DNA from: a virus | DNA: 54,646 nt | Virus record (IMG/VR): IMGVR_UViG_3300045988_087663 | Coordinates: 1 to 54,646 of that record | Direction: 5' to 3' (one strand) | In this document: in pieces, positions 2,896-54,559 of the stretch | How the letters are laid out: each line of letters opens with the position of its first letter | Position numbering within the stretch: the stretch's first letter is position 1 | Program-made: the position numbers and the translations under genes | Notes under the pieces: model-generated | Told to the model about the DNA's origin: nothing | Database searches by the model: none | What the model saw: the letters and a program-made list of their open reading frames with translations, nothing else

Positions 2896-2908
2896 AGGAG
2901 GAATAAAA

Positions 2909-5493: not shown

Positions 5494-6531
5494 TTGGCAA
5501 AGAAAGTGAGGAATATTAAATTGGATTTACTAGAATTATTAAATCAAGAACCACCAATAATCCCAAAAAATTCTACAGTTTTGGATAATTTTGTAAAAGC
5601 GTATTCAATTATAAATAAACCGCAATACAAAACTATTTTATGTTTAATTTCCGGTGGTAGTGATAGTGATGTTATGATGGATATTATATACAAAGTAGAT
5701 GTGAATAAGAAAGTAACCTATGTATGGTTTGATACAGGATTGGAATATGAAGCTACAAAAAGGCATATTGAGTATCTAGAAAAGAAATATGATGTAAAAA
5801 TCATGAGAGAGAGAGCTATTAAGCCTATTCCTTTAACTTGTAAAGAGTATGGTCAGCCATTTATATCTAAATATGTTTCGGAACTTTTAGATAGGTTGCA
5901 GAAAAAAGATTTCGATTTCAAAGATTATAATTATGATTATATGTTAGATAATTACGGTAAATTGTTAGCGTCTTGGTGGTGTAACAAGCACGAAAGTAAT
6001 CAGTTCAATATTGATCGAAATCTTTATTTGAAAGAATTCTTAATAGATAATCCACCAGCATTTAAGATATCAAGTAAATGTTGTGATTACGCTAAAAAGA
6101 ATGTGTCAAAAAAACTAATTAAAAAATATAATATTGATTTGATGATTGTGGGTGTACGAAAAGCTGAGGGTGGGATAAGAGCGACAGCCTATGAAAATTG
6201 TTTTTCCGAAGAATTACACGGAGCCGCACAATATAGACCTCTCTGGTGGTACAATAATGATGATAAGAAAGATTTTGAAGATTATTGTGGAATAGTTCAT
6301 AGTGATTGCTATAAAAAGTATGGATTTCCTAGAACTGGTTGCTGTTGTTGCCCTTATGGGTGGGTGCACAATAAACTATTACACGAATTAGAACAGACAA
6401 AGAAATATGAACCAAAATTATATAAAGCAGTAAATAATGTATTCAAAGATAGTTATGAATACACAAGACAATATTTACAGTTTAGAAAAGAAATGAAAGA
6501 CAAAGAAAAAGGAAGGAAGAGATTGTTTTGA
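5494..6531 (+). CDS. PAPS reductase / DndC-like PP-loop ATP pyrophosphatase family protein with C-terminal Cys cluster and ..RKRLF tail
   Basis: PP-loop SGGSDS, VWFDTGLEYEAT, CCCCPYG cluster. Start is TTG 5494 or, better supported by GTGAGGA, TTG 5521. Confidence 0.7.
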   Translation: MAKKVRNIKLDLLELLNQEPPIIPKNSTVLDNFVKAYSIINKPQYKTILCLISGGSDSDVMMDIIYKVDVNKKVTYVWFDTGLEYEATKRHIEYLEKKYDVKIMRERAIKPIPLTCKEYGQPFISKYVSELLDRLQKKDFDFKDYNYDYMLDNYGKLLASWWCNKHESNQFNIDRNLYLKEFLIDNPPAFKISSKCCDYAKKNVSKKLIKKYNIDLMIVGVRKAEGGIRATAYENCFSEELHGAAQYRPLWWYNNDDKKDFEDYCGIVHSDCYKKYGFPRTGCCCCPYGWVHNKLLHELEQTKKYEPKLYKAVNNVFKDSYEYTRQYLQFRKEMKDKEKGRKRLF

Positions 6532-7574
6532 TAAAACTACAAGATACAATTATACAAACTGATACTCAATCTGTCCTGGATAGGCTTAAATTTGACTTAG
6601 CCCAGCATGGAGTTGATAGATTTCATCAATTTAGACGAAATGGCGATAATATCCAAACTTCATGTCCTTTCCACAAGAATGGACAAGAACGAAAGCCATC
6701 CTTTGGTGTAAATGGGGAAATTGATAAATGCCATTGTTTTGCCTGCGGCTGGAGTGGAACGATTGAGGAAATGATATCTGAATTATATGGATATCAAGAT
6801 GAAGGTAAATTTGGAAAAAGATGGCTAATAAAAAGATTCAATACAGTAGAAATTGAAACAAGACCAAATATAATGGAGGGATTTAATGGAAGGAAAATCA
6901 ATTTATCCAGAGGAATTTATAAAGGCATTGAAACAACATCAAAAGGAAAATCCAGAGAAATGGGAAAAGCTGGACAAGGAAATGAATATGAAAAGAACAG
7001 AGACTTGGAAGAAGGAGATAAAACAGTTATTACAGAAGAAGAATTAGATAAATATAGATATATTCATCCATACATGTATTCTAGAGGCCTTACAGATGAA
7101 ATTATAGAAAGGTTTGATATAGGTTATGACAGAGAGCGAAAAGAAATTACATTCCCAGTTAGAGACATTGAAGGAAGATGTGTGTTTGTTGCAGGAAGAA
7201 GTACGGAGAGGAAGTTTTTCCGACTACCACAAGGACTTAATAAGCCACTATATCAGGGATATAGATTTGTCGATGGAAGCTATAAGATTTGTTATGTCAC
7301 TGAATCATTCTTAAATTGTTTAACTTGTTGGAAATATGATAAGCCTGCTATGGCTATGATAGGTACTGGAAATAAAAAGCAGTATGAAATACTCAATAGA
7401 TTACCAGTTAGAACTTATATACTAGCATTTGACCCAGATGAAGCAGGAAGAAAAGCAACAGAAAGATTCAAGAAAAATGTACATGGAAAAATTATAAAAG
7501 AACTTGTATATACAGATAATCGTGATATAAATGATCTGCAAGAAGAATTTCTGAATTGCAAAATTATTTTTTGA
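6528..7574 (+). CDS. dnaG: DNA primase (CHC2 zinc finger + Toprim)
   Basis: CPFHKNGQERKPSFGV...CHCFACGWSG zinc-binding domain. Toprim-like YVTESFLNC...AFDPDEAGR. Confidence 0.8.
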   Translation: MIKLQDTIIQTDTQSVLDRLKFDLAQHGVDRFHQFRRNGDNIQTSCPFHKNGQERKPSFGVNGEIDKCHCFACGWSGTIEEMISELYGYQDEGKFGKRWLIKRFNTVEIETRPNIMEGFNGRKINLSRGIYKGIETTSKGKSREMGKAGQGNEYEKNRDLEEGDKTVITEEELDKYRYIHPYMYSRGLTDEIIERFDIGYDRERKEITFPVRDIEGRCVFVAGRSTERKFFRLPQGLNKPLYQGYRFVDGSYKICYVTESFLNCLTCWKYDKPAMAMIGTGNKKQYEILNRLPVRTYILAFDPDEAGRKATERFKKNVHGKIIKELVYTDNRDINDLQEEFLNCKIIF

Positions 7575-8211: not shown

Positions 8212-8892
8212 ATGGGAAGAATTAACTATGAAGATGTAGATAAGTATGGAAACAATTCAGATACGGAATTTCTGAAGCTGGAAAATGATGGAGACTGTGC
8301 TACAGTGCAAATCATGGCACATGATATGGAGGACATTGACATTTTTAATTGTCATGAGGTGCAGGTCGGCTATTATGACAATGGTAATGCAAAAACAAGA
8401 CCAGTATCTTGTTTGAGAAACTATGATGATCCTTTGGATGTTTGCCCCCTTTGTGAAGCAGGGATGAAACAAAAAGTGGTAATGATGCTGGCTATGGTCG
8501 ATCAGGAAGATGGAAAGATCAAAATTTGGAATCGAGGAAAGACTTTTATCCCAAAGGTTAAGAATCTGATTAACCGTTGGGGAGATATGACGGAGCGTCC
8601 AGTGGATATTATAAGAAACGGCAGAAAAGGGGATAAAAAAACAACTTACAATATTCAGATTTCACCGGAAGAACCGATTGATATTAGCCAGTACGAAAAG
8701 CCGGAATTTTTAGGTGGGTATATCATGGATAAGACGGCGGATGAAATGCAGGAATATCTTGATACAGGATGTTTTCCTGATGCAGATAATAACGATAATG
8801 AAGATAATACACAAGTAAGACGCAGAAACACGGAACCACTTCCATCAAGAAGAGGAGCAAGCAGAGCAACAAGCAGACGAGCTGGTATGTAG
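8212..8892 (+). CDS. Putative ssDNA-binding protein (T4 gp32-like zinc site)
   Basis: H-x18-C-x10-C-x2-C (NCHEV..VSCLRNYDDPLDVCPLCEAG) resembles the gp32 His/Cys3 site. Immediately upstream of the polymerase. Confidence 0.45.
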   Translation: MGRINYEDVDKYGNNSDTEFLKLENDGDCATVQIMAHDMEDIDIFNCHEVQVGYYDNGNAKTRPVSCLRNYDDPLDVCPLCEAGMKQKVVMMLAMVDQEDGKIKIWNRGKTFIPKVKNLINRWGDMTERPVDIIRNGRKGDKKTTYNIQISPEEPIDISQYEKPEFLGGYIMDKTADEMQEYLDTGCFPDADNNDNEDNTQVRRRNTEPLPSRRGASRATSRRAGM

Positions 8893-8901
8893 GAGGATTA
8901 T

Positions 8902-11256
8902 ATGGCATTATCATTTGCAAGACCAAAAAGCAATGATAAGAATATAATCAAAAAATCCAAAACAGTAACAACAAGAACAAGTATTAAGAGCGGCGGAAAT
9001 AATCTAGCCGCTCAAATACAATCTATAGTTGCTATTGCTAATCAAAAATTAGCAGTACATAAGGATGATTATATTCTTATCAGAGAGCCCGACCAACTAT
9101 ATGAATATATGAAAGAAATGAAGCGAGTTGGGGAGGGTGCCTTAGATACAGAAACAACAGGATTAAATCCGTTACTTGTAGATATAGTTGGAGGCTGTAT
9201 TTATACACCAGGACAAAAAGCGGCATATATTCCAATCAATCATAAATCGTATATCACAGGTGTACGAACAAAGGAACAGATGGATGAGGAAACTGTTTCA
9301 AAGATTATGAAAGAGTTCTACAAGGATATTAGATGGATTTTTCATAATGCAAAATATGATATCCGGGTATGTAGAAAGACACTTGGAATTGATTTCAAGC
9401 CTTATTGGGATACAATGTTAGCGGCATACTGTATAGACGAAGAAGAAAGTCACAGACTGAAAGATTTGCACCTTAAATACTGCAATAGCAAAGATACAGA
9501 ATCTTTGACATTTGATACATTATTTAATGGTGTTACTTTCGATATGATACCAATATCCACAGCATATTTGTATGCGGCAGGTGACGCCATAAAGACATAT
9601 GAATTATATGAGTACCAAAAAACATTATTAAATAGAAGGGTTTTATCCGGCCCTTATAATGTGTTTTGGAATATTGAAATGCCACTTATTCCAGTTGTAG
9701 CAGATATGGAAGATAGAGGAGTATGTCTTGATTTTGATGTATGTAAAAATCTACATGAAAAATATCATAAGATAAGAGAAGAAAGACAAAAGCAAGCTGA
9801 TGAAGCCTTGGCAATGTATAAAGATGAAATTGATAATTATAGAATGGGTTCAACTTATGCTAATACTTACCCAGACGGTTCAACTGAATATTCAAATTCA
9901 CAAACAAGCAAGGGTAAAAAATGGGGACATACAAAAGTATTCAGTAACGCCAGTAAGCTATCTGACCCTATATCATTATCAAGTCCAACTCAGCTTGCAA
10001 TATTATTCTATGATATTTTAGGATTGGAAAGTCCGGATAAAAAAGCACCTAGAGGAACTGGTGAGGATATTTTAAAACACTTTGCACAAGGGAAAGAAAA
10101 GAATCTATGCGAAGCTATTTTAGGAATGAGAAATGTTGATAAGCTTCTTGGAACATATATTGACAAAATGCCTGATATAGCTCTTAAAGATGGAAGGGTT
10201 CATGCAAGTTATAATCAATATGGTGCAAAAACTGGTAGATTTAGTTCTCAGGACCCGAACCTACAGAATATCCCCTCGCACAACAAAGAGATTAGACAGA
10301 TGTTCAAAGCTCAAGATGGGTATGTACTTATAGGGTCTGATTTTAGCCAGCAGGAGCCAATGGTAACCGCTCATTTATCTGATGATAAAAAAATGCAAGA
10401 AGCATTTATAAATGGCAAGGATATATATGCAACAATTGCCGCACTTGCATTTCATAAAAAATATGAAGAGTGTAAAGAGTTTCGAGAAGATGGTACAGTA
10501 AACCCGGAGGGTAAGGAAAGAAGAACACAAGCTAAAAGCATAGTTCTTGGAATTTTGTATGGAAGACAAATCCCATCTATTGCGGAACAGCTTGGAGTAT
10601 CTACTAAGGAAGCACAAGCCATATATGATAAGGTTATAGCTTCATTCCCAGCACTTGGAAAGTTTATTGAAGATTCACAAGAAATGGCAAGAACTGAAGG
10701 ATATGTAACTACTGCATGGGGTAGACGTAGACACTTGAAAGATATGCAGTTAGAACGATATGAATTTTCCTATAGCGGAAAAGTAACTAACTTCGACCCT
10801 CTGGCATTTGGAAGTGAAGTATCAACAGAAGTTCCAAAAAAAGTAAAGGACAATTATATCAAACAGCTTGATAAGGCGTTTGGCTGGAAAAAGAAAAACG
10901 ATATAATTCAAAAAGCTTTATCAGAAGGAATTAAAATCAAAGACAATGGAGGATTTATAGCACAGGCGGAAAGACAATGCGTAAATGCTAGAGTTCAAGG
11001 TTCAGCGGCAGATATAACAAAGCTTGCTATGATTGCTATAAATAATGATGAAAGAATGAAAGAGCTTGATTTCCATTTGCTTATACAAGTACATGACGAG
11101 GTAATAGGAGAATGTCCTATTGAAAATGCAAAGGAAGCAGGAGAAAGACTTTCATATCTTATGAGAACAGCACCTAGTCATTTGATTAAACTTCCGTTCA
11201 AGTGTGATGTTGATTTCATGAAAAATTGGTATGGTGAAGAAGTTGAAATAAATTAA
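8902..11256 (+). CDS. polA: Family A DNA polymerase with 3'-5' exonuclease domain
   Basis: ExoI DTETTGL. Motif A SDFSQQEP, motif B RRTQAKSIVLGILYG, motif C IQVHDEVI. Confidence 0.9.
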   Translation: MALSFARPKSNDKNIIKKSKTVTTRTSIKSGGNNLAAQIQSIVAIANQKLAVHKDDYILIREPDQLYEYMKEMKRVGEGALDTETTGLNPLLVDIVGGCIYTPGQKAAYIPINHKSYITGVRTKEQMDEETVSKIMKEFYKDIRWIFHNAKYDIRVCRKTLGIDFKPYWDTMLAAYCIDEEESHRLKDLHLKYCNSKDTESLTFDTLFNGVTFDMIPISTAYLYAAGDAIKTYELYEYQKTLLNRRVLSGPYNVFWNIEMPLIPVVADMEDRGVCLDFDVCKNLHEKYHKIREERQKQADEALAMYKDEIDNYRMGSTYANTYPDGSTEYSNSQTSKGKKWGHTKVFSNASKLSDPISLSSPTQLAILFYDILGLESPDKKAPRGTGEDILKHFAQGKEKNLCEAILGMRNVDKLLGTYIDKMPDIALKDGRVHASYNQYGAKTGRFSSQDPNLQNIPSHNKEIRQMFKAQDGYVLIGSDFSQQEPMVTAHLSDDKKMQEAFINGKDIYATIAALAFHKKYEECKEFREDGTVNPEGKERRTQAKSIVLGILYGRQIPSIAEQLGVSTKEAQAIYDKVIASFPALGKFIEDSQEMARTEGYVTTAWGRRRHLKDMQLERYEFSYSGKVTNFDPLAFGSEVSTEVPKKVKDNYIKQLDKAFGWKKKNDIIQKALSEGIKIKDNGGFIAQAERQCVNARVQGSAADITKLAMIAINNDERMKELDFHLLIQVHDEVIGECPIENAKEAGERLSYLMRTAPSHLIKLPFKCDVDFMKNWYGEEVEIN

Positions 11257-11714: not shown

Positions 11715-11795
11715 TAAAGAATGATTATAAATATTATTTACCTGTTAAAGTAACCATTCCATATGAAGATATTAAAAGATTGGAGGAGCTTATCT

Positions 11796-12539
11796 ATGAG
11801 CGTTAATAATATATCAAAAATAATGCAATATGTGGAGCCCATTGCGAGGGCTCCAGTAGTTATTGATGGTACGGTATATGATAATCAAGCAGTATCTATA
11901 AAATTGAACAAGAATTTTTTACTATCGGACAGTTGTGATATGTGCGGAAAGTGTTGTATAAATGAAGCCAATATATTCACAAAATCTGAAATGAAGAACA
12001 TTATAGATATTGATTATGTCGAATATGAAAAATGGAACCTTGATACCTCTGTACCTGAATTACTAAAAAATGAAATACAAGAAATCATTGTAAATATAAA
12101 CGGAAATAATATTCCTATATATAAGGTGAGCAAAAAACATAACTATAAAGATATTCCAGATAGAGGTAATTTAGATAGATGTAGATGGTTGGTTCAGAAA
12201 TCTGAAACATTATTTGTGTGTGGGATTCACCCTGTGGTTAGTATAACTTGTGATATGCCTCATTTAAGATTTTTCTTTAATAGAAAAACTAAACATCTTT
12301 CATTAGGAGTTGCAGAATATGGTAGAAACTGGGCATTAAAATGTCCAGCAAAATTTGACAAAACAAGGGTAGATTTTAAGTTATCGAAGTTATACCATTT
12401 ACAAAGAGTATGTGACGATTTAAAAATAGACACAAGACTTCCAGAAATAATATCATATATAAAGAAAATGACACCAAATAATTATATGTCGATGTTGGAT
12501 GTAGATATACTTAATACAAGTAGTAGGAGGTTATTTTAA
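11796..12539 (+). CDS. YkgJ-like CxxCxxCC cysteine-cluster (Zn/Fe-chelating) protein with ..SRRLF tail
   Basis: CDMCGKCC motif plus downstream Cys/His residues. ATG 11796 lies 9 nt after GGAGG. Stop overlaps the dpdA start (TAATG). Confidence 0.6.
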   Translation: MSVNNISKIMQYVEPIARAPVVIDGTVYDNQAVSIKLNKNFLLSDSCDMCGKCCINEANIFTKSEMKNIIDIDYVEYEKWNLDTSVPELLKNEIQEIIVNINGNNIPIYKVSKKHNYKDIPDRGNLDRCRWLVQKSETLFVCGIHPVVSITCDMPHLRFFFNRKTKHLSLGVAEYGRNWALKCPAKFDKTRVDFKLSKLYHLQRVCDDLKIDTRLPEIISYIKKMTPNNYMSMLDVDILNTSSRRLF

Positions 12540-13459
12540 TGTCATTCGATTTATATTTTGCATCAAGCGGAAACAAAGATATGGAGCTATTGTTGGAAAA
12601 AAAGCATTGTAACCGATTATTCACACAGCTTGAAAAATCATCTATAAAGAGATGTATTGAAATGAAAACGAGAAGGAATCCATCAAAGTTATTTATAGAT
12701 TCAGGTGCATTTACATCATGGACAAAAGGAATATCAGTTGATGTGGACAGTTATATTGATTATATAAATAATCTTGACGATAAAATAACAATATGTGCTC
12801 AGGTAGATTGTATTCCGGGTACATTTGGTAGAGTAAGAACACAAAAAGAAATTGAAGAATCTCCTATTAAAAGTTGGGAAAATTATCTGTATATGAAAGA
12901 CAAATTAAAATCGAGGGATAAATTGATTCCTATATTTCATCAAGAGGAAAGTTTTGAACATTTGAAAAAAATGCTTGAATATAGACATTTAGACGGAAAA
13001 CCAATTGCATATATAGGAATATCACCTAGTAATGATAGGTCACAAGCGGATAAGGAAGATTTTATTGCAAGAAGTTTTTATATCATAAAACATAGCTCAA
13101 ACCCAAATGTAAAAACTCATGCGTTTGGTATGACAAACCTATCCATATTAGAGAGGTACCCTTATACATCTGCTGACAGTACATCATGGAAAATGTCCGC
13201 GGCATTTGGTAGCATAATGACAAGATTCGGAACAATAGTAATAAGTTCTGAACAGCTTAAAGATAAAAAACATATTGAATATATGCCCTCAACTGTTAAG
13301 GAGTATGTGAAGTCGGAATGCTTGAAATATGGGATTGATTATGATATGTTATACACTGATTTTGGTACAAGAGCAAAATTTAATATAAATTATCTCAAGG
13401 ACTGGGCAGATAATTATGAGTATAAGCCTGTTACAGTTCATAAGAGATCACTATTTTAA
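12539..13459 (+). CDS. dpdA: DpdA-like DNA (7-deazaguanine) transglycosylase, TGT superfamily, with ..KRSLF tail
   Basis: LFIDSGAFTSW (compare TGT DSGGFQ catalytic Asp motif). HAFGMTNLSILERYPYTSADSTSW (compare TGT G-x-D-M-F-D region). Adjacent to yhhQ. Confidence 0.7.
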   Translation: MSFDLYFASSGNKDMELLLEKKHCNRLFTQLEKSSIKRCIEMKTRRNPSKLFIDSGAFTSWTKGISVDVDSYIDYINNLDDKITICAQVDCIPGTFGRVRTQKEIEESPIKSWENYLYMKDKLKSRDKLIPIFHQEESFEHLKKMLEYRHLDGKPIAYIGISPSNDRSQADKEDFIARSFYIIKHSSNPNVKTHAFGMTNLSILERYPYTSADSTSWKMSAAFGSIMTRFGTIVISSEQLKDKKHIEYMPSTVKEYVKSECLKYGIDYDMLYTDFGTRAKFNINYLKDWADNYEYKPVTVHKRSLF

Positions 13460-13467
13460 ATTGGTTA

Positions 13468-13506
13468 TAAGGTGCTGTTTTGTAAGCTTCTGACACCCAG
13501 CACCTT
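13468..13506 (+). promoter_or_regulatory. Hairpin followed by an A-rich tail and SD, upstream of yhhQ (candidate regulatory RNA)
   Basis: Stem AAGGTGCTG 13469-13477 / CAGCACCTT 13498-13506 with a 20-nt loop ending ..CUGACACC. A-rich tail runs to AAAGGAG 13527-13533. Confidence 0.4.
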
Positions 13507-13542
13507 TATAATAAATATTAAAAATAAAGGAGTGTTGTAAAA

Positions 13543-14178
13543 ATGAACAACAAAAAAGTATCAAGTATCTTATTAACCCTATGCGTGGTATTTGTATCAT
13601 GTATTATTATGAGTAATGTCTTGGCAAATGAAACTTTACAAGTGTATAAGTGGAGTTTAGATGCGGGCATATTTTTATTTCCAATAACCTATATATTATC
13701 CGATATTTTTTCAGAAGTATATGGTTACAAATGGTCAAGACGTGTCACATGGATGGCAGTAACATTGAATTTAATATTTTCATTGCTTATAATCTTGGCT
13801 TGTAAATTACCTCACCCTATTTGGTTTGATGGTTCGCATTTTGAATTAGCACTATGTGGTTCTTTTAGAATTGTTCTTGCAAGTGCTATTTCTTATCAGT
13901 TCGGAGATTTGATAAACGATATTATATTTAAGAATATGAAAAGAAATCATTCAGATTCAAAGGGATTTATCATGCGAGCTATATTATCATCATTAGGGGG
14001 GGAATGTGTAGATTCGGCACTATTTGTTATGATAGCATTTTTAGGGACAATGCCATTTTCTGAAATTTTCCCTATGATTATGATGAATATTATCTGTAAA
14101 ACCGGTTATGAAGTTATGATTTGCCCATTGACAAATATAATAATGAAAAAAATTAAAAAATTAGAGGATGCCAAATGA
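13543..14178 (+). CDS. yhhQ: Queuosine-precursor (preQ0/preQ1) transporter, YhhQ/VUT family
   Basis: Polytopic membrane protein. FPITYILSDIFSEVYGYKWSRRV and SYQFGDLINDIIF match YhhQ-family hallmarks. Confidence 0.75.
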   Translation: MNNKKVSSILLTLCVVFVSCIIMSNVLANETLQVYKWSLDAGIFLFPITYILSDIFSEVYGYKWSRRVTWMAVTLNLIFSLLIILACKLPHPIWFDGSHFELALCGSFRIVLASAISYQFGDLINDIIFKNMKRNHSDSKGFIMRAILSSLGGECVDSALFVMIAFLGTMPFSEIFPMIMMNIICKTGYEVMICPLTNIIMKKIKKLEDAK

Positions 14179-14462
14179 TAAAGATTTATATATCTGGTAA
14201 AATAACAGGAACAACAGATTATATACAGAGATTTGAGAGAGCAGAAAAAGCTCTCTCAAATTATATAGTAATCAACCCGGCTAAAGTAAACGCACAACTT
14301 CCGGTGGAAACAACATGGAAAGAATATATGCAGATGTCAATGACAATGCTTAAAATGTGCAATGCTATTTATATGCTGAAAGGTTGGGAAGATAGTAAAG
14401 GAGCAAGATCAGAATATAATTATGCAGTAGAAAATAATTATAAAATAATTTTTGAAAAGTAG
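14175..14462 (+). CDS. DUF4406 / nucleoside 2-deoxyribosyltransferase-like protein
   Basis: MIKIYISGKITG...VINPAK...WKEYMQMSMTMLKMCNAIYMLKGWEDSKGARSEY matches the DUF4406 pattern. ATGA overlap with yhhQ. Confidence 0.6.
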   Translation: MIKIYISGKITGTTDYIQRFERAEKALSNYIVINPAKVNAQLPVETTWKEYMQMSMTMLKMCNAIYMLKGWEDSKGARSEYNYAVENNYKIIFEK

Positions 14463-14491
14463 TTTACATTTTGTTTTTTATGTGTTACAAT
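14463..14491 (+). promoter_or_regulatory. Repeated-cassette promoter (TTTACA-17-TGtTACAAT)
   Basis: -35 14463-14468, -10 14486-14491. Begins directly after the stop of the preceding gene. Confidence 0.7.
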
Positions 14492-14522
14492 ATAAGAGAA
14501 ATAAACAGAAAGGAGAAAGACA

Positions 14523-15899
14523 TTGAATTATGATGAATTTCTAAAAACAAAAATAGAGCAATTCAAGCCATGCGGTTTTGATTGTGAACCTTCAAACGAA
14601 AATCTATTTGATTTTCAAAGAGCTATTGTAAAGATAGCACTTAAAAGAGGGAAATCTGCACTGTTTCTTGACACTGGACTGGGAAAAACTATATGCCAGT
14701 TATCATGGGCAGATGAAGTGTATAAGCACACTGGAAAGAATGTACTTATACTTGCCCCACTTGCTGTATCAGTTCAGACAAAAAGAGAGGGGGAAAAGTT
14801 CGGTATTGATGTAAATATTTGTAGAACGCAGAAAGATGTAAAAGACGGAATAAACATTACTAACTATGAAATGTTAGAACATTTTAATGCTGATGAATTT
14901 ATAGGAATTGTACTTGATGAAAGCTCAATACTAAAATCATTTTCCGGAAAGACTACAAAAGCATTGATTGAAAAGTTTAGAAAAACAGAATATAAACTTG
15001 CTTGTTCTGCCACTCCTGCTCCAAATGATTATGAAGAATTGGGTAATCACTCTGAATTTTTAGGAGTAATGACAAGAACAGAAATGCTTGCTACTTATTT
15101 TGTGCATGATGGTGGAAACACAAGTAAATGGAGATTGAAAGGTCACGCAGAAGAACAATTCTGGCATTGGGTATCAAGCTGGGCAAGCGTAATGAAAACT
15201 CCAGAAGATATAGGTTATAATGGAGATAAATATAAATTGCCTGCCTTGAATGTGCAAGTTGTAAAAGTAGCTGGAGAAACAAAGAGAGGAAAGCTGATTC
15301 CTAGTGTTGTAACAGATTTACAAGACAGAAGAGAAGCAAGAAAAGAAAGTCTTAATAAAAGAGTATCAAAGTGTGCAGAACTTATAAAATCTCACAATAT
15401 GGAAAATTGCTTGATTTGGTGTGATTTTAATGACGAAGGAAACGCACTTGAAAAAGCAATTCCAAACGCTGTGCAAGTTGCCGGTTCAGATACAAACGAA
15501 AATAAAGAAAAATCATTATTAGGATTTTCAACCGGTGATATAAAGTTTCTTGTAAGTAAGCCTAAAATTGCCGGATTTGGTATGAACTGGCAGAATTGTA
15601 ACAATATCATTTTCTGTGGCATATCAGATAGTTATGAAAAATACTATCAAGCTATAAGAAGATGTTACAGGTTCGGGCAGACAAAAGAAGTAAATGTATA
15701 CATTGTTATAAGTACAAGAGAATTGCCGGTTTATAACAATATACTTGAAAAAGGCAGACTTGCTGATGAAATGAATAAAAAAATGGTTGAAATTGCATCC
15801 AAGTATCTTGAAGATGAAATAAAGAACACAACAAGAATGGCGGATGAATATGATGCAGAAATAAAAATGAAACTACCAGAATGGGAGGAAATGAAATGA
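14523..15899 (+). CDS. SNF2/DEAD-like superfamily 2 helicase
   Basis: Motif I DTGLGKT, motif II LDESS, motif III SATPAPN, motif VI QAIRRCYRFGQ. TTG start 7 nt after AGGAG. Confidence 0.75.
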   Translation: MNYDEFLKTKIEQFKPCGFDCEPSNENLFDFQRAIVKIALKRGKSALFLDTGLGKTICQLSWADEVYKHTGKNVLILAPLAVSVQTKREGEKFGIDVNICRTQKDVKDGINITNYEMLEHFNADEFIGIVLDESSILKSFSGKTTKALIEKFRKTEYKLACSATPAPNDYEELGNHSEFLGVMTRTEMLATYFVHDGGNTSKWRLKGHAEEQFWHWVSSWASVMKTPEDIGYNGDKYKLPALNVQVVKVAGETKRGKLIPSVVTDLQDRREARKESLNKRVSKCAELIKSHNMENCLIWCDFNDEGNALEKAIPNAVQVAGSDTNENKEKSLLGFSTGDIKFLVSKPKIAGFGMNWQNCNNIIFCGISDSYEKYYQAIRRCYRFGQTKEVNVYIVISTRELPVYNNILEKGRLADEMNKKMVEIASKYLEDEIKNTTRMADEYDAEIKMKLPEWEEMK

Positions 15900-16792
15900 A
15901 AGGACAAAGTGCAGTAAATGTTGAAAATCAGTTAATCACAGATAAATATGCTTTATATAATGGTGATAGCTGTGAGATTATGAAAGGAATACCTGATAAT
16001 AGTATTCACTTTTCTATATTCTCTCCGCCTTTTGCAAGTCTTTATACCTACTCAAACAGTGATAGAGATTTGGGAAATTGTAGGACAACAACAGAATTTT
16101 ATGAACATTTCAAGTTCATAGTTTCTGAATTGTATAGAATTACAATGCCTGGAAGATTAGTAAGTTTTCATTGTATGAATTTGCCAACAAGCAAGGAAAG
16201 AGATGGTTTTATAGGCATTGAAGATTTTAGAGGATTGTTGATTAAGTTATTTCAGGATAGTGGATTTATTTATCACTCAGAAGTTTGCATTTGGAAAGAC
16301 CCAGTAATCGCAATGCAGAGAACAAAGGCACTTGGCTTATTGCATAAGCAGTTGAAAAAAGATAGTTGTATGAGCAGACAAGGTATTCCAGATTATCTTG
16401 TAACAATGAGAAAGCCAGGAGATAACCCAGAAAGATGTGAGCATACAAATGAAACATTCCCAGTCAGCAAATGGCAGAATTATGCAAGTCCAGTATGGAT
16501 GGATATAAATCCTAGTGATACTTTGCAAGCGAGAAGTGCAAGAGAAGAAAAGGACGAAAAGCATATATGCCCTTTACAGTTGCCAGTTATAGAAAGAGCT
16601 ATAGAGTTGTGGACTAACCCGAATGATATAGTATTTACTCCATTTTTAGGAATTGGCTCAGAATGTTATAAGGCAATAGAAATGGGCAGACGAGCAATGG
16701 GAATTGAACTCAAAAAGAGTTATTATGAGCAGGCTTGTAAAAATGTAGCAAGTGTGCCATTTAACAGTCGTTATAAAAAAGGATTATTTTAA
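15896..16792 (+). CDS. DNA N4/N6 methyltransferase (beta class) with ..YKKGLF tail
   Basis: Motif IV SPPF precedes the AdoMet motif FTPFLGIGSE. ATGA overlap with the helicase stop. GGAGG 7 nt upstream of ATG 15896. Confidence 0.8.
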   Translation: MKGQSAVNVENQLITDKYALYNGDSCEIMKGIPDNSIHFSIFSPPFASLYTYSNSDRDLGNCRTTTEFYEHFKFIVSELYRITMPGRLVSFHCMNLPTSKERDGFIGIEDFRGLLIKLFQDSGFIYHSEVCIWKDPVIAMQRTKALGLLHKQLKKDSCMSRQGIPDYLVTMRKPGDNPERCEHTNETFPVSKWQNYASPVWMDINPSDTLQARSAREEKDEKHICPLQLPVIERAIELWTNPNDIVFTPFLGIGSECYKAIEMGRRAMGIELKKSYYEQACKNVASVPFNSRYKKGLF

Positions 16793-16804
16793 GGAGGAAA
16801 CAAA

Positions 16805-17899
16805 ATGAAAGTAGTAACAAGCAGAATGAAAGATGCAGTAAACAAAGCAATCAAAGGAGCAGGATTTAATAATCTTATTCCTATTACATCAATGATAGGT
16901 ATTAAATTATCAGATGGAAAGTTACGGTTGCTTACAACGGACATGACAAATACACTTTGTATTATCATTGACAAGGTCTCCGGCGTGGATATGGATATCA
17001 CGGTTGATGCTGACAAGTTCGGAAAGTTGATTTCAAAGATCACTTCCGAGGACATTGAATTATTGGTTATTGACGATGTTTTATCAATCAAAGCCAACGG
17101 AAATTATAAGATTCCATTGATTTCAGACGAAGACGGACTTATTTCATTCCCAGATATTAAGCCATTAGATGATAAGAATGTGCAGTGTTCAACCAAACTT
17201 TCAAGTGTTATGCAGGCTTATAATATCAATAAATCAGCACTTGCAAAAACACTTGAGAATCCGTCTTTAACAGGTTATTATTGTGGAGATACTGTTATTA
17301 GTACGGATGCAAATGTCATTACATTCAATGGGTTTAAGATGTTTGATAATGAAGAACCTATTCTTATTTCCGCTCAACAGATGCAGTTATTAACATTGAA
17401 TACAAAGGAGGATATTGAAGTTTATATTGGAAAAACAGGTATTCAGTTCGTGACAGAAGATGTTGTGATTGATGGAGCATTGATGGAAGGAATTGAAGAT
17501 TTCCCAGCTAATGAAGTAAACGCTTATCTTGATGAAGCATTTACATCTTCTTGCAAAGTACCAAAAGATTTACTTCTTTCCGTACTTGATAGACTTGCAT
17601 TATTCATTGAACCGTATGACAAGAACGGAGCATATTTCACATTCGGAAGAAAGGGAATCAATATTCACAGTAAAAAGGATGCTTCAACAGAGACTATCAA
17701 CTATGTGGAAAGTAAGAACTTTGCACCATTTGTATGCTGTGTAGATATTCCAATGTTGAAGGAACAGTTGCAGGCTAATCCGGACGATACGGTGAAGATT
17801 TGCTATGGAAATGAAAATGCGTTGAAGATTGAAAGCGGAAAAGTGACACAGGTTATAGCATTGCTTGAAGATGAAGAACTTGACAATATGACAGAATAA
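16805..17899 (+). CDS. dnaN: DnaN-like sliding clamp (beta-clamp family)
   Basis: 364 aa. LRLLTTDMTNTL, VISTDANVITF, GALMEGIEDFP and LLSVLDRLALF are spaced as in the three DnaN domains. Confidence 0.65.
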   Translation: MKVVTSRMKDAVNKAIKGAGFNNLIPITSMIGIKLSDGKLRLLTTDMTNTLCIIIDKVSGVDMDITVDADKFGKLISKITSEDIELLVIDDVLSIKANGNYKIPLISDEDGLISFPDIKPLDDKNVQCSTKLSSVMQAYNINKSALAKTLENPSLTGYYCGDTVISTDANVITFNGFKMFDNEEPILISAQQMQLLTLNTKEDIEVYIGKTGIQFVTEDVVIDGALMEGIEDFPANEVNAYLDEAFTSSCKVPKDLLLSVLDRLALFIEPYDKNGAYFTFGRKGINIHSKKDASTETINYVESKNFAPFVCCVDIPMLKEQLQANPDDTVKICYGNENALKIESGKVTQVIALLEDEELDNMTE

Positions 17900-24437: not shown

Positions 24438-24627
24438 GTGTGGTTCTAAATATTCAAATGTTATTAACAGTCGAAAAATTGAATTAAATGTTTTTCGTAC
24501 CAGGTTATGTAAAAATTGCAAAGAAAGATTTTATACAGAAGAGACAGTTATTTCAAATGAGGAAGCCAGATATTATATGGCGTACCTGTCAAGAAAATAT
24601 AGATCATCTAAAAAGGAGGAAAAATGA
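24424..24627 (+). CDS. NrdR-like zinc-ribbon protein lacking the ATP-cone
   Basis: MECPKCGSKYSNVINSRK...FRTRLCKNCKERFYTEE parallels the NrdR N-terminus (C-P-x-C..V-I-D-S-R..R-R-x-C-x2-C-x2-R-F-T-T-x-E). Only 67 aa. Confidence 0.55.
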   Translation: MECPKCGSKYSNVINSRKIELNVFRTRLCKNCKERFYTEETVISNEEARYYMAYLSRKYRSSKKEEK

Positions 24628-24891: not shown

Positions 24892-25917
24892 ATGGCAAAA
24901 GAACCACTGGCAGTAAAATATAGACCAACGTCATTCAATGATATGACTGAACAGAGTGCTATAAAAGACATATTAGAAAATCAGATTAAAACAAAGACAT
25001 TCCAACATGGGTATCTTTTTACCGGACCAGCCGGTACAGGAAAGACAACATCTGCGAGGATTTTCGCAAATATGATAAATGATAGCAAAGGAAATCCTAT
25101 TGAAGTAGATGCGGCAAGTAATAGCGGAGTAGACAATATTAGACAGATTATAGAAGACGCTAAAAGAAAACCACTAGACGCAGAATACAAGATATTCATA
25201 GTAGATGAATGTCATTCTCTTTCAAATGGGGCGTGGCAAGCATTATTAAAGACGCTTGAGGAACCGCCAAAATTTACTATTTTTATTTTCTGCACGACGG
25301 ACCCACAGAAAGTACCTGCTACAATTCTTTCAAGAGTACAGAGATATAACTTTCAGAAAATAAGCAATGAAGGAATCATTGAAAGATTAAACGATATTCT
25401 TGAGAAAGAGGGAAAAGAATCTGAAATTCCTATTAGTTGGTCAGCGGATGCTGTTGAATATATAGCAAAAGTTTCATCAGGTGGTATGAGAGACGCAATA
25501 ACACTGATGGATAAATGCTTATCACTTTCCAATAATTTGAGTTTAAAATATGTATTACAAGCAATAGGTGGTGAAGATTATAGCACATTTATAACATTTT
25601 TATCCGCATTAGAGAAAAAGGAAAAAGAGATTTCAATTAAAGTAGTTGAAGATGTTTATACTTCTGGGAAAGATGTAAAGCAGTTCATGAAAGACCTCTC
25701 AAAGTTTATTTTGGAAGTGGGAAAATATTCCTTGTATAATAACTTTGATTATATTAGCTTACCCAATACATTGGAGAATGAGTTAGAACAGCTTATTGAT
25801 GATAGTTTATTTGATGTTATGGACTTTGTAGTTTCGTTGAATAATCAGATTAAGTGGGAAAATGACCCAAAGACACTAGTTGAATTATCTATTTTGATTT
25901 ACTGTGGAAAGGAGTAA
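24892..25917 (+). CDS. dnaX: Clamp-loader ATPase, DNA polymerase III gamma/tau-like
   Basis: YRPTSFNDM..GYLFTGPAGTGKTT (Walker A), IFIVDECH (Walker B), LLKTLEEPP, ILSRVQRY (SRC motif). Confidence 0.85.
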   Translation: MAKEPLAVKYRPTSFNDMTEQSAIKDILENQIKTKTFQHGYLFTGPAGTGKTTSARIFANMINDSKGNPIEVDAASNSGVDNIRQIIEDAKRKPLDAEYKIFIVDECHSLSNGAWQALLKTLEEPPKFTIFIFCTTDPQKVPATILSRVQRYNFQKISNEGIIERLNDILEKEGKESEIPISWSADAVEYIAKVSSGGMRDAITLMDKCLSLSNNLSLKYVLQAIGGEDYSTFITFLSALEKKEKEISIKVVEDVYTSGKDVKQFMKDLSKFILEVGKYSLYNNFDYISLPNTLENELEQLIDDSLFDVMDFVVSLNNQIKWENDPKTLVELSILIYCGKE

Positions 25918-25921
25918 ATAT

Positions 25922-26716
25922 ATGATTGGTCAGAAAAACAACATAAATAATCTTATTCAGTGGCGTTGTAATAAGTCAGTTCCAAGATTCATTATCATTT
26001 CCGGGGATATTGGTAGTGGAAGATTAACGCTTGCAAAAGTCATTATAAAAATGATAAACGCAAAGGGAATAATCATGGGAAATAGTATTGCGGAAGTCAG
26101 AGAAACAATAGAAAATGCTTACACAATCACAGAACCCGCCTGTTACATCTTTAGAAATACTGATGATATGAAAAACGAAGCAAAAAACGCTCTCTTAAAG
26201 GTAGTTGAAGAACCACCTAATAATGCTTATTTCATTATGACAGTACAAAATATAGATAATATGTTGGGAACAATAAAGAGTAGAGGAACAGTCATAAAGA
26301 TGGATCCTTATACTATTCAAGAAATGCAAAAAGTAACAATGGACGAAACTTTATTAAAATACTGCACTAATATAGGTCTCCTTAATACACCGAAGGAAAA
26401 GATCTTGCAAGCAGAGAAATGTGTGGATGATGTACTAGAAGCATTCAGTACTAAGAGTGGTACTAAATTGTTGAAAGCCACTACACAGTTAGAGGCTAAG
26501 AAGACTGACGAGGATAAGGTAGATTGCTTGATTTTTATGAGGATATTTGAACATAAATTATATGATTCTTATGGGTTCTGTTCTCTTTCCCTTTGTATCA
26601 TAAAAGATATATGCTCATGTAGACAGGAATTGCAAAGAAGTAGCATCAATAAAAAAGCCAGTATTGAATCAATGCTTATTAGAATGCTGGAGACATTGAA
26701 AGGAGAAATAATATGA
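25922..26716 (+). CDS. holB: Clamp-loader delta'-like subunit
   Basis: FIIISGDIGSGRLTLAKVI, ALLKVVEEPPNNAYFIM, TIKSRG. Confidence 0.65.
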   Translation: MIGQKNNINNLIQWRCNKSVPRFIIISGDIGSGRLTLAKVIIKMINAKGIIMGNSIAEVRETIENAYTITEPACYIFRNTDDMKNEAKNALLKVVEEPPNNAYFIMTVQNIDNMLGTIKSRGTVIKMDPYTIQEMQKVTMDETLLKYCTNIGLLNTPKEKILQAEKCVDDVLEAFSTKSGTKLLKATTQLEAKKTDEDKVDCLIFMRIFEHKLYDSYGFCSLSLCIIKDICSCRQELQRSSINKKASIESMLIRMLETLKGEII

Positions 26717-27426
26717 TTAAATTAGAACATACAGTTTTACCTTCATCAAATCAAATGCAATTTGTTATTGAAGGTATGAGAAATCCTATGAATAGTTGGG
26801 ATAAGAGTGATAGTGTTAAATGCTATGCTAACGAAAAATGTCAATGTATATGTAATGAAAATAAAATTGGGTTATGTGTGGGTGATAACGACCGCTCCCT
26901 CATGAATAGCTTAGCCAAAGCAGGCACAGACCATAGAAAATTTATGAGAATGATGCCCGTTTATGTGAGAATAACTGCACCTTTATATTGGTGGAAAGAA
27001 GCAGACACATATAAAATTGGTACTGTTGCGAACTCTTGTTCAACTATGCACAAGATTCAGGAGAAGGAGTTTACGTTGGAGGATTTTTCAACGGAACACT
27101 TAAAAACAGGAGCAATCATATGTCTAAACGATATAATTGATGAATTAAATAAAAATAGAGATAGATTTAATAATTTTGATAGTTTAGGTTATGACAATAA
27201 TATTTATGAACCGGAACGTAAAGAAGAAATAAAGAAATATATTTGGTGGCAGATGATTCAACTTCTTCCGAGCAGTTACAATCAGACTCGTAATGTAATG
27301 ATGAATTATGAGGTGCTGGCGAATATTTATAAGTCTCGTAAGAACCATAAGTTAGATGAATGGAGAGAATTTTGCGGATGGATTGAAAATTTACCTTATT
27401 CTGACTTAATCATAATGGAGGATTAA
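26713..27426 (+). CDS. Divergent ThyX-fold-like protein (RHR signature not conserved)
   Basis: DRSLMNSLAKAGTDHRKFMRMMPVYVRITAPLYWWKEADTYKIGTVANSCSTMH aligns by eye to ThyX [51 protein letters not shown], but RHR is replaced by DTY. Confidence 0.35.
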   Translation: MIKLEHTVLPSSNQMQFVIEGMRNPMNSWDKSDSVKCYANEKCQCICNENKIGLCVGDNDRSLMNSLAKAGTDHRKFMRMMPVYVRITAPLYWWKEADTYKIGTVANSCSTMHKIQEKEFTLEDFSTEHLKTGAIICLNDIIDELNKNRDRFNNFDSLGYDNNIYEPERKEEIKKYIWWQMIQLLPSSYNQTRNVMMNYEVLANIYKSRKNHKLDEWREFCGWIENLPYSDLIIMED

Positions 27427-27428
27427 AA

Positions 27429-27791
27429 ATGCAAAGATTTCCTAGATGCTGGGATAAAATCACTTGTATAAATTTTCTTCAAAGGAAAATTATTATAAAT
27501 TCCATAGCTTATTATGAATTGGATGCCCCAGTTATTTCCGATAAACAATATGATGAATTGTGCCATCAGTTGGTTAGTCTACAAAAAACTGTAGATATTT
27601 CAAACACTCAATATGGTTATTGTTTTCAAGATTTCGACGGAAGCACCGGGTTTGATTTGTATGGCCGACTAAATGAGTACGATAAGACTTATTTGAAACA
27701 TATTGCTGAGATAGGTTTACGAAGTTACAAGTCAGAAACCAATCCTCCAACTAAAAAAGTAAAGAAGAAAAAGAAAGGGGGCTTATTCTGA
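27429..27791 (+). CDS. Stand-alone NAD-dependent-ligase domain Ia-like protein with poly-Lys ..KKGGLF tail
   Basis: NSIAYYELDAPVISDKQYDELCHQLVSLQ parallels LigA [30 protein letters not shown]. No adenylation KxDG domain. Confidence 0.5.
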   Translation: MQRFPRCWDKITCINFLQRKIIINSIAYYELDAPVISDKQYDELCHQLVSLQKTVDISNTQYGYCFQDFDGSTGFDLYGRLNEYDKTYLKHIAEIGLRSYKSETNPPTKKVKKKKKGGLF

Positions 27792-28750
27792 TGGAATTAG
27801 CACAGCTTATGACAAGAATTTCAAGTGGTTCTATTCCTCATTTTTTAATCCTATTTGGAGAGGAACAAACTATTTTGGGCATTTATATCCAACATATAGC
27901 TCAAGCCGTAGAAGGTAAAATTATACCAGCTCAAAAGGTTTCCAATGCTGTTAAACAGGTTGGCAAAAAAAGTCTTGACAAATCAAGAAAAATATACACG
28001 ATCACAGATGATCCTGATTTTATAAAAAACGAGGAAATCTGGAAAATAGTAAAGTCTTATTTTAAGAAAGATTATGTGATACTGAGATACCACTCTTTAG
28101 ATAAACGCTCGGCTTTTTTTAAGAAAAACAAAGAAAATATCGTTGAATTTTCACATTTATCTGATGAAGTCTTAAAACAATACATCTATAGAGATTTACC
28201 AGATTTAAGTGATGAAAATGCAAGTAAGTTGATTAGCTATTGCAATAATGATTATGGAAGAATTTTGATGGAAATTGATAAAATATGGCAGGCTCAATCC
28301 AGTAGACTATCTAATTTTAACATAAATTTAGATTCCAATGATTGTTTTGAGGAATTAGATAAGCAAGGTTTATTTCATAAAGAAATCGGAGATATTACTT
28401 TTGAGCTGACAGATGCTGTATTAGGAGGCTATCCTGAAAAAGCTATACAGAAGCTGGATGAGGCAAAACGAAAAGGTGAGCCAGCCATGATGATAGCATC
28501 TATTCTTTATAAAGGTTTCCGGAATTTATTGGCTTATCAAGGGCTTGGAAATAATAAGAAAGGCGCAATGGAAAGAACTGGTTTAACAAAAGGAGAACTA
28601 TGGGGTTGCAATAAAAACATGGGAGGATATAGTCTATCAGAATTACGAAGAAATATGCTTTTTTGTCAAAAAGTAGAAGCTAGTATAAAGATGGGAAAAG
28701 TGGATGAAGATATAGCTTTGGATTATTTAGTATTGACCTGCTTGAAATAA
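27791..28750 (+). CDS. holA: Clamp-loader delta-like subunit
   Basis: 319 aa. N-terminus IPHFLILFGEEQTILGIYIQHI resembles HolA (..YLL.G.E..L). Last gene of the loader operon. Confidence 0.55.
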   Translation: MELAQLMTRISSGSIPHFLILFGEEQTILGIYIQHIAQAVEGKIIPAQKVSNAVKQVGKKSLDKSRKIYTITDDPDFIKNEEIWKIVKSYFKKDYVILRYHSLDKRSAFFKKNKENIVEFSHLSDEVLKQYIYRDLPDLSDENASKLISYCNNDYGRILMEIDKIWQAQSSRLSNFNINLDSNDCFEELDKQGLFHKEIGDITFELTDAVLGGYPEKAIQKLDEAKRKGEPAMMIASILYKGFRNLLAYQGLGNNKKGAMERTGLTKGELWGCNKNMGGYSLSELRRNMLFCQKVEASIKMGKVDEDIALDYLVLTCLK

Positions 28751-54523: not shown

Positions 54524-54559
54524 ATTCCAGCACCATTTTAGGTGTTGGAATTTTTTTTT
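54524..54559 (+). terminator. Rho-independent terminator
   Basis: ATTCCAGCACC-ATTTTA-GGTGTTGGAAT followed by T9. The tail is the first bases of the terminal repeat. Confidence 0.8.

Follow-up and report, generated by a model that had tools for sequence, protein, structure and literature searches.

Five proteins of a metagenomic gut phage end in the same two residues, Leu-Phe, preceded by basic residues, and the question raised by this locus is what such a shared C-terminus might serve. The sequence analysed is IMG/VR virus record IMGVR_UViG_3300045988_087663, positions 1-54,646, and the whole of this 54,646-base stretch is referred to as the window. It encodes a PAPS-reductase-like protein, a DpdM-like CxxCxxCC protein, the DNA guanine transglycosylase DpdA, an N6/N4 DNA methyltransferase and a stand-alone LigA domain-Ia-like (Nlig-Ia) protein, which carry the Leu-Phe (LF) tail, together with a DnaN-type sliding clamp and a clamp loader. 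Judged from sequence comparison, these C-terminal [KR][KR]-x-L-F tails are probably clamp-binding short linear motifs, representing a basic variant of the bacterial Q-L-[SD]-L-F motif.

The Leu-Phe tail in the window and its relatives

A first-pass annotation of this DNA had counted exactly five open reading frames (ORFs) ending in LF. Five LF endings preceded by basic residues, all on the + strand, are indeed present, but LF endings number six in total. The sixth ORF (24624-24872, ..LLDILF) is hydrophobic, has neither basic residues nor a family match, is kept in one related contig and is probably a small membrane peptide outside the tail set. The gene ends had been placed exactly, whereas the longest ORFs of two tailed proteins start slightly further upstream, at 11763 instead of 11796 and at 15881 instead of 15896. 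The identities assigned to the five tailed proteins, the clamp and the loader hold in Pfam, phrog and NCBIfam matches, and the tail is, as had been stated, absent from the structural, lysis and core replisome proteins of the window, including the family A polymerase. With an LF dipeptide frequency of 0.0029 in the proteome, 0.25 terminal LF would be expected among the 85 window ORFs against the six observed (binomial P 2.4e-7), and basic-basic-x-LF is matched at four termini against 0.015 expected (P 2e-9). A chance origin of the LF tails is excluded.

To see at which level the tail is maintained, codon usage and the sequence downstream of the tails were compared in the window and the related contigs. 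The penultimate Leu is encoded by TTA, CTT, CTA, TTG, CTC or CTG, the Phe by TTT or TTC, and all three stop codons are used. The 3' context comprises an overlapping ATG, a Shine-Dalgarno site past the stop codon or a promoter-like TTGACA. Because the Leu, Phe and stop codons and the downstream context vary while LF stays, the tail is a protein-level constraint. It would be extremely improbable that the tail has no protein partner at all and is a basic, DNA-binding or solubility appendage, a nucleotide by-product of gene ends (Shine-Dalgarno sequence plus AT-rich spacer) or a product of chance at low GC content. Such an origin could draw on the fact that Lys, Leu and Phe codons occur frequently at a GC content of 34%, and that AGGAGG (Arg-Arg, DpdM-like gene) and GGAGGA (Gly-Gly, Nlig-Ia gene) act at the same time as ribosome-binding site for the gene that follows. 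It conflicts with the P value of about 2e-7 obtained against the proteome's own composition, with the persistence of L-F under changing codons and context, by which the by-product idea is largely refuted, and with the DpdA, methyltransferase and S-adenosylmethionine (SAM) methyltransferase tails, which precede promoters or post-stop Shine-Dalgarno sites. In addition, phages with a GC content of 40-60% (CAjan, Iggy, RHEph04) retain the tail, and many tightly packed window genes end otherwise than in LF.

Two gene overlaps illustrate the double use of these bases. At 12519-12541, where the DpdM-like gene overlaps dpdA, AGGAGG encodes Arg-Arg and forms the dpdA Shine-Dalgarno site ahead of TTATTTTAATG, and at 27771-27793, where the Nlig-Ia gene overlaps the following gene, GGGGGC or GGAGGA encodes Gly-Gly and forms the next Shine-Dalgarno site ahead of TTATTCTGATG. 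The stop codon of the methyltransferase gene lies 12 nucleotides (nt) upstream of the clamp start, and here the Shine-Dalgarno site of the clamp gene is found past the stop codon, outside the tail. A ribosome-binding-site or spacer by-product was rejected as a general cause on the codon and context variation and is kept as a partial contributor in the DpdM-like and Nlig-Ia genes. The tails are positioned outside the catalytic domains: the Pfam methyltransferase domain reaches residue 285 of 303, the Nlig-Ia domain stops at residue 78 of 120, with a Lys-rich stretch after it, the DpdA tail comes after a variable segment of about 12 residues, and the core of the PAPS-reductase-like protein ends near residue 335 of 345.

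Conservation of the tail was followed in a clamp-centred set of 48 contigs, collected around clamp homologues at 45-96% identity. In the window and these contigs, LF is the commonest C-terminal dipeptide (74 of 1305 ORFs), and the basic-tail families account for 67 of the 74. LF ends were obtained for 24 of 27 DpdAs, 15 of 16 N6/N4 methyltransferases (KKGLF, MKKLF, RKKLF), 10 of 11 Nlig-Ia proteins (GGLF, RRLF) and both PAPS-reductase-like proteins. The CxxCxxCC protein has a terminal LF in two of five sequences; the other three show KKKLFEIRR or RRKLFTVE just short of the end. For the PAPS-reductase-like protein, the four sequences from this phage's family, at least 74% identical, share the form GRK[KR]LF.

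The most extensive comparison was possible for DpdA. The window protein is 43% identical to Dp-1 DpdA over its full length, and D54, S55, D90, H134, H194, S211, D213 and S214 are core invariants of a 12-sequence alignment. The tail persists in DpdA orthologues with as little as about 25-35% identity and in phages infecting Firmicutes, Proteobacteria and Cyanobacteria, and at 29-40% identity the preceding residues drift while the tail stays (..FSYRKRLF, ..TMFRKKLF, ..HITVKRRKLF). Among the best 120 database matches to DpdA, 90 end in LF and most others in SLI, SLL, SLW, HLV or KLIDF. After clustering at 50% identity, 86 of 150 representatives end in LF, 25 in LW, LI or LL, and 14 have LF no more than four residues from the end. 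In DpdA-QueF fusions (517-536 aa), the inter-domain linker still contains K[KR][ST]L[IF], with a clamp gene about 2.4 kb downstream. Such conduct across DpdAs and fusion linkers is what a short linear motif would be expected to show.

The CxxCxxCC protein, whose gene overlaps the start of dpdA, matches DpdM of Cellulophaga phage phiSM (CEPG_00054) in BLASTP with an E value of 2e-8 and 23% identity over 193 residues, and scores 22.3 bits against the Pfam CxxCxxCC cut-off of 23. As phiSM DpdM has been assigned as a preQ1 methyltransferase (PMC10516641), the window protein is a candidate for the same function, on the strength of a weak homology. A wider IMG/VR orthologue scan for it yielded one extra locus only.

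In relatives of this phage, the tail is carried by further families that the window does not encode. It was found on a C5 cytosine DNA methylase (..YRKKLF), on a SAM methyltransferase encoded beside DpdA (..KSKKLF), on a second N6/N4 methylase family (..RQKHLF), on an ArcS-like DUF5591 protein (KHKKLF) and on a protein resembling the TET-associated glycosyltransferase (TAGT), for which the Pfam match is weak and below cut-off. DUF5591 is the core domain of viral ArcS (PMC10516641). DUF6884 proteins have the tail (MKRRLF, QRKLF) in 4 of 4 cases in the clamp-centred loci and in 13 of 15 cases in a second, DpdA-centred set, which comprises 78 IMG/VR loci with DpdA homologues at 35-55% identity. 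In phage phiSM (NC_020860.1, 25000-44557), DpdM ends ..NQVNLF and the adjoining ParB-like CEPG_00052 ends ..TSVNLF, and DpdA3 is without a tail; the phiSM tail may come from a partner subunit rather than from DpdA3. FolE, QueC, QueD, QueE and QueF, where present, have no tail in Dp-1, Flasso, CAjan, Iggy, RHEph04, BcepGomr, Synechococcus phage Yong-L2-223 and phiSM. In the phages examined, the tails mark DNA-acting enzymes and not the enzymes that make the free base, and their spread over unrelated DNA-modifying families is convergent.

The sliding clamp as candidate partner

The bacterial beta-clamp consensus QL[SD]LF docks in the hydrophobic cleft on the clamp (reviewed in PMC9690074), and position 2 of the motif tolerates change, as in Qx[DE][LM]F of Mu MuC/Mor (bioRxiv 10.1101/2025.01.04.631326). 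Tails of the form Q-x-x-L-F were found in Dp-1 (QRRLF), MS1 (QNRLF), Flasso (QGKLF), a Stenotrophomonas phage (QMELF), R5C (QVSLF) and phiSM (QVNLF), many tails read KQxKLF, and that of Iggy is QELF. The tails appear to converge on the canonical bacterial clamp-binding pentapeptide Q-x-x-L-F.

Gene order links the same proteins to the clamp. A clamp or processivity-factor gene has dpdA 0-3 genes upstream of it in Dp-1, MS1, Flasso, CAjan, the Stenotrophomonas phage, Vibrio R31B, Iggy, RHEph04, BcepGomr and Yong-L2-223, so that the linkage spans phages of Firmicutes, Proteobacteria and Cyanobacteria, and in the Bacteroidetes phage phiSM the modification cluster closes with the gene of a DnaN-type clamp (CEPG_00047), five genes downstream. 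In the DpdA-centred set, 57 of the 78 loci combine the tail with a downstream DnaN-type clamp, often 12-15 nt or about 100 nt away, and three are QueF fusions with a clamp present. A tail without a clamp was seen in 12 loci, 11 of them on contigs that end less than 4 kb downstream, and four loci, on large contigs of jumbo size, lack a clamp within 10 kb and carry the motif in a sub-terminal position. A hidden Markov model of the CAjan-type clamp gave no matches in the Firmicute-type loci, the two clamp groups being too divergent for one model. The mycobacteriophage DpdAs of Bipper, Nadezda and Knocker have no tail, and no clamp gene was present in the few kb of flank examined. The co-occurrence of tail and clamp that the first-pass annotation had asked about is thus borne out, with tailed DpdA genes adjoining a clamp gene and the mycobacteriophage DpdAs lacking both. 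The mycobacteriophage dpdA genes adjoin ParB-like genes, which is reminiscent of bacterial DpdA/DpdB and may reflect an alternative way of engaging DNA.

To characterize the product of 16805-17899, a profile built from 11 phage clamps was compared with solved structures. It matched the bacterial beta clamps PDB 3t0p, 7evp, 2avt and 4tr6 over residues 1-351 with E values of 2.5e-17 to 5e-16, in agreement with the DnaN-type clamp first proposed for this gene; single-sequence Pfam and NCBIfam matches of the window clamp alone are below the cut-offs. In the alignment, the TD of the host pocket motif T-D-[GS]-H-R corresponds to clamp residues T167-D168, and F/Y-P of the solved clamps corresponds to a nearly invariant F-P (P234). 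The segment that follows F/Y-P in the solved clamps lines the peptide pocket. The loader is complete, with gamma/tau- and delta'-like subunits (both matching phrog_5846) and a HolA-type delta subunit above the TIGR01128 cut-off, as had been annotated.

The C-termini of clamps and enzymes appear matched in charge. Clamps with acidic C-termini (..VIALLEDEELD.. in the window type, ..ALQEPEE in the Dp-1 type) pair with basic tails, and proteobacterial phage clamps, which end like that of E. coli (..GAIIGMRL, ..GVLIGERV; G.IG[MEQ][RK][LV]), pair with ..QELF, ..MELF or ..RLF tails. Read from the alignment, the acidic stretch would sit where E. coli beta has ..VVMPMRL. Tail charge and clamp C-terminal charge are negatively correlated (Spearman rho -0.38, P 0.014, n=41 unique pairs, uncorrected for relatedness).

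If the tails bind a clamp, the partner might be the host DnaN instead of, or besides, the phage clamp. We regard this as unlikely. Many DpdA tails are canonical Q-x-x-L-F, the DpdA of Dinoroseobacter phage R5C ends AQVSLF with no clamp gene within 4 kb, the four jumbo-size contigs carry the motif without a nearby clamp, and CAjan DpdA reportedly modifies DNA when expressed alone in E. coli, all of which a host partner would accommodate. It would account less readily for the tight dpdA-clamp and methyltransferase-clamp linkage, often of 12-15 nt, for the departure of the basic window-family tails from QLxLF together with a family-specific acidic clamp C-terminus and anticorrelated charges, and for the tailless DpdAs of mycobacteriophages, although their hosts have DnaN.

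A reader other than a clamp, i.e. a protease adaptor or ClpX-type degron timing turnover, the SNF2 helicase, the polymerase, the single-stranded DNA-binding protein (SSB) or a capsid-packaging signal, is more doubtful still and appears quite improbable. Basic C-termini with hydrophobic ends resemble known degrons, such as RRKKAI of MuA, related replisome proteins use other tails (the acidic ends plus Phe of helicase and SSB), and no polymerase clamp motif was found. The basic character is, however, not general: in proteobacterial phages, VMELF, QMELF and IQELF keep L-F and the linkage to the clamp. The internal motif in the DpdA-QueF linker misfits a C-terminal degron, and the clamp gene is the sole gene consistently linked to tailed dpdA across phyla.

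Several observations weigh against binding of the tails to the phage clamp. The window tails KRSLF, KKGLF, RKRLF, SRRLF and KGGLF keep L4-F5 but have neither Q1 nor Leu-2, and the residues that precede LF in the DpdM-like and Nlig-Ia proteins are encoded by bases that overlap the Shine-Dalgarno sequence of the next gene. On the side of the clamp, the counterpart of T-D-[GS]-H-R reads TDANVI, so that the pocket is conserved only partly. An AlphaFold2 model of the clamp alone, made with a shallow alignment of homologues at least 82% identical, shows repeated beta-alpha-beta units (predicted local distance difference test 42, predicted template modelling score 0.30) but is too unreliable to vouch for the clamp fold. 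A clamp-binding motif, which would tie the clamp to the replisome, was not identified in the family A polymerase. The co-occurrence of dpdA and clamp is partly phylogenetic, one DpdA subfamily travelling with one replication module, and its negative set consists of three mycobacteriophages; the charge correlation is modest. Finally, two of the tails are confined to the phage family: that of the PAPS-reductase-like protein is missing in nine homologues at 39-58% identity, and that of the Nlig-Ia protein is missing in the Dp-1 counterpart gp16 (..ERLLRK) and in most homologues of other phages. These two proteins are weaker members of the tail set. In the Dp-1 host-phage interactome paper, neither the DpdA nor the DnaN ORFs have an entry.

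In the polymerase, two conserved xxLF sites, QLAILF and FDTLF (residue 204), were considered, and the C-terminus NWYGE.. is conserved in orthologues. QLAILF, which resembles a conserved family A polymerase motif, was set aside as a clamp-binding motif and is probably part of the fold.

Genome layout and other terminal peptides

The window has a GC content of 34%, and nearly every gene lies on the + strand. About 97 bases (1-97 and 54550-54646) are identical at the two ends, which indicates a complete, circularly assembled phage genome. Its left third is a replication and nucleotide module with a layout that matches Streptococcus phage Dp-1 (Table 1), and 24892-28750 forms a five-gene clamp-loader operon with the Nlig-Ia gene inside. 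The product of 26713-27426 in this operon gave zero Pfam or NCBIfam matches. Close relatives are dozens of IMG/VR contigs of 45-58 kb, and the database members of the clamp cluster are mostly metagenome or sequencing-run assemblies, one labelled as a Eubacterium ventriosum metagenome-assembled genome. A DNA search for close relatives among cultured phages found none, with similarity only at the level of the helicase.

Table 1. Genes of the window discussed in the text, with supporting matches and C-terminal residues.
Feature	Coordinates	Strand	Matches	C-terminus or remark
DnaD-like initiator	start 2083			
DnaC-like loader	start 3243			
DnaB-like helicase	start 3905			
PAPS-reductase-like protein (PP-loop ATPase)	5494..6531	+	Pfam PAPS_reduct E 5e-14; phrog_424 E 6e-31	ends ..GRKRLF
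DnaG-like primase	6528-7574			
SSB	8212-8892			
Family A DNA polymerase	8902..11256	+	phrog_17 E 1e-143	tail absent, ends ..EEVEIN
DpdM-like CxxCxxCC (YkgJ/DUF3109) protein	11763..12539	+	Pfam CxxCxxCC E 2e-4	ends ..SSRRLF
DpdA, DNA guanine transglycosylase (7-deazaguanine insertion)	12539..13459	+	phrog_887 E 2e-51	ends ..HKRSLF
Vut_1/YhhQ-type transporter, probable preQ0/preQ1 uptake	13543..14178	+	Pfam Vut_1 E 5e-38	tail absent
DUF4406	start 14175			
SNF2-type helicase	14523..15899	+	Pfam Helicase_C and SNF2-rel_dom	tail absent, ends ..PEWEEMK
N6/N4 DNA methyltransferase	15881..16792	+	Pfam N6_N4_Mtase E 7e-17; phrog_67 E 1e-40	ends ..YKKGLF
DnaN-type sliding clamp, 364 aa	16805..17899	+	phrog_947 E 6e-34	conserved acidic C-terminus ..VIALLEDEELDNMTE
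Cas4-like nuclease	start 19405			
RecU	start 20468			
UvsX-like recombinase	start 21894			
Hydrophobic ORF, 82 aa	24624-24872			ends ..CCVRLLDILF
Clamp-loader gamma/tau-like ATPase	24892..25917	+	phrog_5846 E 8e-89	
Clamp-loader delta'-like subunit	25904..26716	+	phrog_5846 E 1e-29	
Conserved 237-residue protein in the clamp-loader operon, between the delta'-like and Nlig-Ia genes	26713..27426	+	phrog_6721 E 4e-78	
Stand-alone LigA domain-Ia-like (Nlig-Ia) protein	27429..27791	+	Pfam Nlig-Ia E 5e-19	Lys-rich linker, ends ..KKGGLF
Clamp-loader delta (HolA) subunit	27791..28750	+	NCBIfam TIGR01128 holA 87.8 bits (cut-off 80); phrog_20214 E 2e-43	
Sigma factor	start 29116			

FolE, QueD, QueE and QueC were not seen among the annotated window ORFs. 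Because these enzymes were not seen and a transporter gene follows dpdA, the gene content suggests that the phage salvages preQ0/preQ1 made by the host or the community. The Vut_1/YhhQ-type transporter gene comes after dpdA, a placement that matches that of the Vut_1 membrane protein next to DpdA in phage MS1.

Other terminal peptides were noticed in the same replication modules. The DnaG-like primase of the window ends ..CKIIF, its orthologues keep hydrophobic-aromatic ends (KITF, EVVF, PQYF, KEFF), and primases of other DpdA/clamp phages end NLQELF or F[ND]DLVL; the primase C-terminus could make a further contact to the clamp or the helicase. DnaB-like helicases of related phages end in an acidic stretch plus Phe (EGVEAF, GTDVF, EDMF), and their SSBs end RGGRF, DDEF or SDVF. 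These helicase and SSB tails form a different class, reminiscent of T7 gp4 and gp2.5, and several terminal peptides seem to wire these replisomes. In Pseudomonas phage Ab26 (NC_024381.1), which has a clamp and no annotated modification enzyme, 0 of the 32 annotated proteins examined (about 60% of the genes) end in LF. The C-terminus of the Ab26 polymerase, ..AALSFF, resembles a clamp-binding motif, and that of the Ab26 clamp, ..YEDDIPF, is like the tail of an SSB. An HNH_3 endonuclease of one related contig (250 aa, 2661-3413 of that contig, inserted upstream of the polymerase region) ends ..NNRSGKLF, which may be chance or may point to a homing endonuclease on the same docking site.

A possible clamp-tethered modification system and its relation to known clamp clients

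Clamp binding by the tails would suggest the following course of events. The phage loader, with its gamma/tau-, delta'- and delta-like subunits, would load the phage DnaN-type clamp at phage replication forks, and the clamp would ride on, or stay behind on, the newly made duplex DNA. Enzymes that act on new DNA, each with its tail at the end of a flexible extension of 10-40 residues, could then dock in the hydrophobic cleft on the clamp and travel along the DNA with it. In the window these would be DpdA (exchange of G for 7-deazaguanine), the DpdM-like preQ1 methyltransferase and the N6/N4 methyltransferase, and in relatives also the C5 methylase, SAM methyltransferase, ArcS-like, DUF6884 and glycosyltransferase proteins. 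Tethering of this kind would render modification rapid and processive and restrict it to replicating phage DNA, ahead of cutting by host nucleases. We infer the clamp cleft as the partner, the phage rather than the host clamp as its owner, and the kinetic benefit.

Docking of terminal peptides on clamps is well known. Bacterial beta-clamp clients with QL[SD]LF or QLxLxL motifs include Pol II, Pol IV, the alpha and delta subunits, Hda, MutS and MutL (Dalrymple et al., 2001, cited in PMC9690074). The tailed phage proteins resemble them in a short terminal motif that stands on a flexible extension and ends in L-F, often as Q-x-x-L-F, in the presence of a DnaN-type clamp with a dedicated loader, and in the use of one docking site by many enzymes ('tool-belt'). 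They differ from them in being DNA-modifying enzymes (a transglycosylase, methyltransferases, amidotransferase-like proteins) and not polymerases, repair or regulatory factors. In the window family, moreover, Lys or Arg replaces Q and Leu-2, the clamp is encoded by the phage and has an acidic C-terminal extension, and the docking is a proposed one.

The same logic is known from eukaryotic Dnmt1-PCNA, where a clamp-binding peptide brings a DNA methyltransferase to newly replicated DNA (PMC9690074). There, however, the clamp is trimeric PCNA, the motif is the PIP box QxxLxxFF and the client is one enzyme in another domain of life instead of a suite with base exchange among its activities, so that the likeness is one of analogy and not of homology. 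Among phages, gp45 of T4, which works with the C-terminal tails of gp33 and gp55 in late transcription, shows that non-polymerase proteins with terminal clamp-binding peptides can couple a process to replication, and in Mu MuC/Mor an N-terminal Qx[DE][LM]F binds the host clamp (bioRxiv 10.1101/2025.01.04.631326). In both cases transcription factors are recruited, unlike the modification enzymes considered here, for which the clamp in the window family would be of the phage DnaN type and not gp45 or a host clamp.

With known phage 7-deazaguanine systems (DpdA1-4, DpdM, ArcS, QueF; PMC6884629, PMC10516641, PMC10484667), the window shares the arrangement of DpdA, a DpdM-like protein and a transporter, as in Dp-1 and MS1, and base exchange after replication. 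As a DNA-tracking helper, the clamp would be roughly analogous to DpdB of the bacterial Dpd system, in which DpdA works with this ParB-like ATPase. The three main papers on these phage systems do not mention a C-terminal motif of DpdA, a clamp or a processivity factor. A search of the full-text literature, with most subscription journals outside its coverage, found no connection of DpdA with a clamp or processivity factor, no clamp binding by a phage methyltransferase and no link between hypermodification and a clamp. A 2022 clamp review names Dnmt1-PCNA as the sole DNA-modifying client (PMC9690074). The class of phage DNA-modification clients and the apparent private basic variant of the code therefore appear new, and clamp-tethered DNA modification would probably constitute a new client class for a known mechanism.

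Should the tails bind the clamp, they would provide a mechanism by which post-replicative modification keeps pace with replication and stays specific for phage DNA, a point left open in the 7-deazaguanine literature, and DNA-modifying enzymes would join the beta-clamp clients of bacteria and phages. In phages that encode a clamp, a C-terminal Q/K/R-x-x-L-F would then be a cheap marker, which would flag DUF6884, PAPS-reductase-like, Nlig-Ia and ParB-like proteins as DNA-acting modification partners. Insertion efficiencies of DpdAs range from <0.1% to 100%, and some DpdAs are poorly active in heterologous hosts (PMC10516641). Co-expression of the cognate clamp and loader might rescue the activity of DpdA3 or DpdA4 in E. 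coli, and cleft-blocking peptides might deprive phage DNA of its protection.

In a broader and more tentative reading, which we put forward with some doubt, phage DnaN-type clamps could act as 'epigenetic tool-belts', in which a charge-tuned private code recruits swappable modification enzymes to the forks of the phage and not to host clamps. The set would comprise base exchange, N6, N4 and C5 methylation, preQ1 methylation, amidation and glycosylation. The L-F tail would in that case be a sequence-only predictor that tells DNA-acting enzymes from free-precursor enzymes, for instance for DpdM, ArcS-like, DUF6884 and PAPS-reductase-like proteins. Hypermodification would be processive, co-replicative and confined to phage DNA, and the recruitment of modification enzymes may be a main reason for the retention of clamp and loader in phages whose family A or B polymerases work without a clamp.

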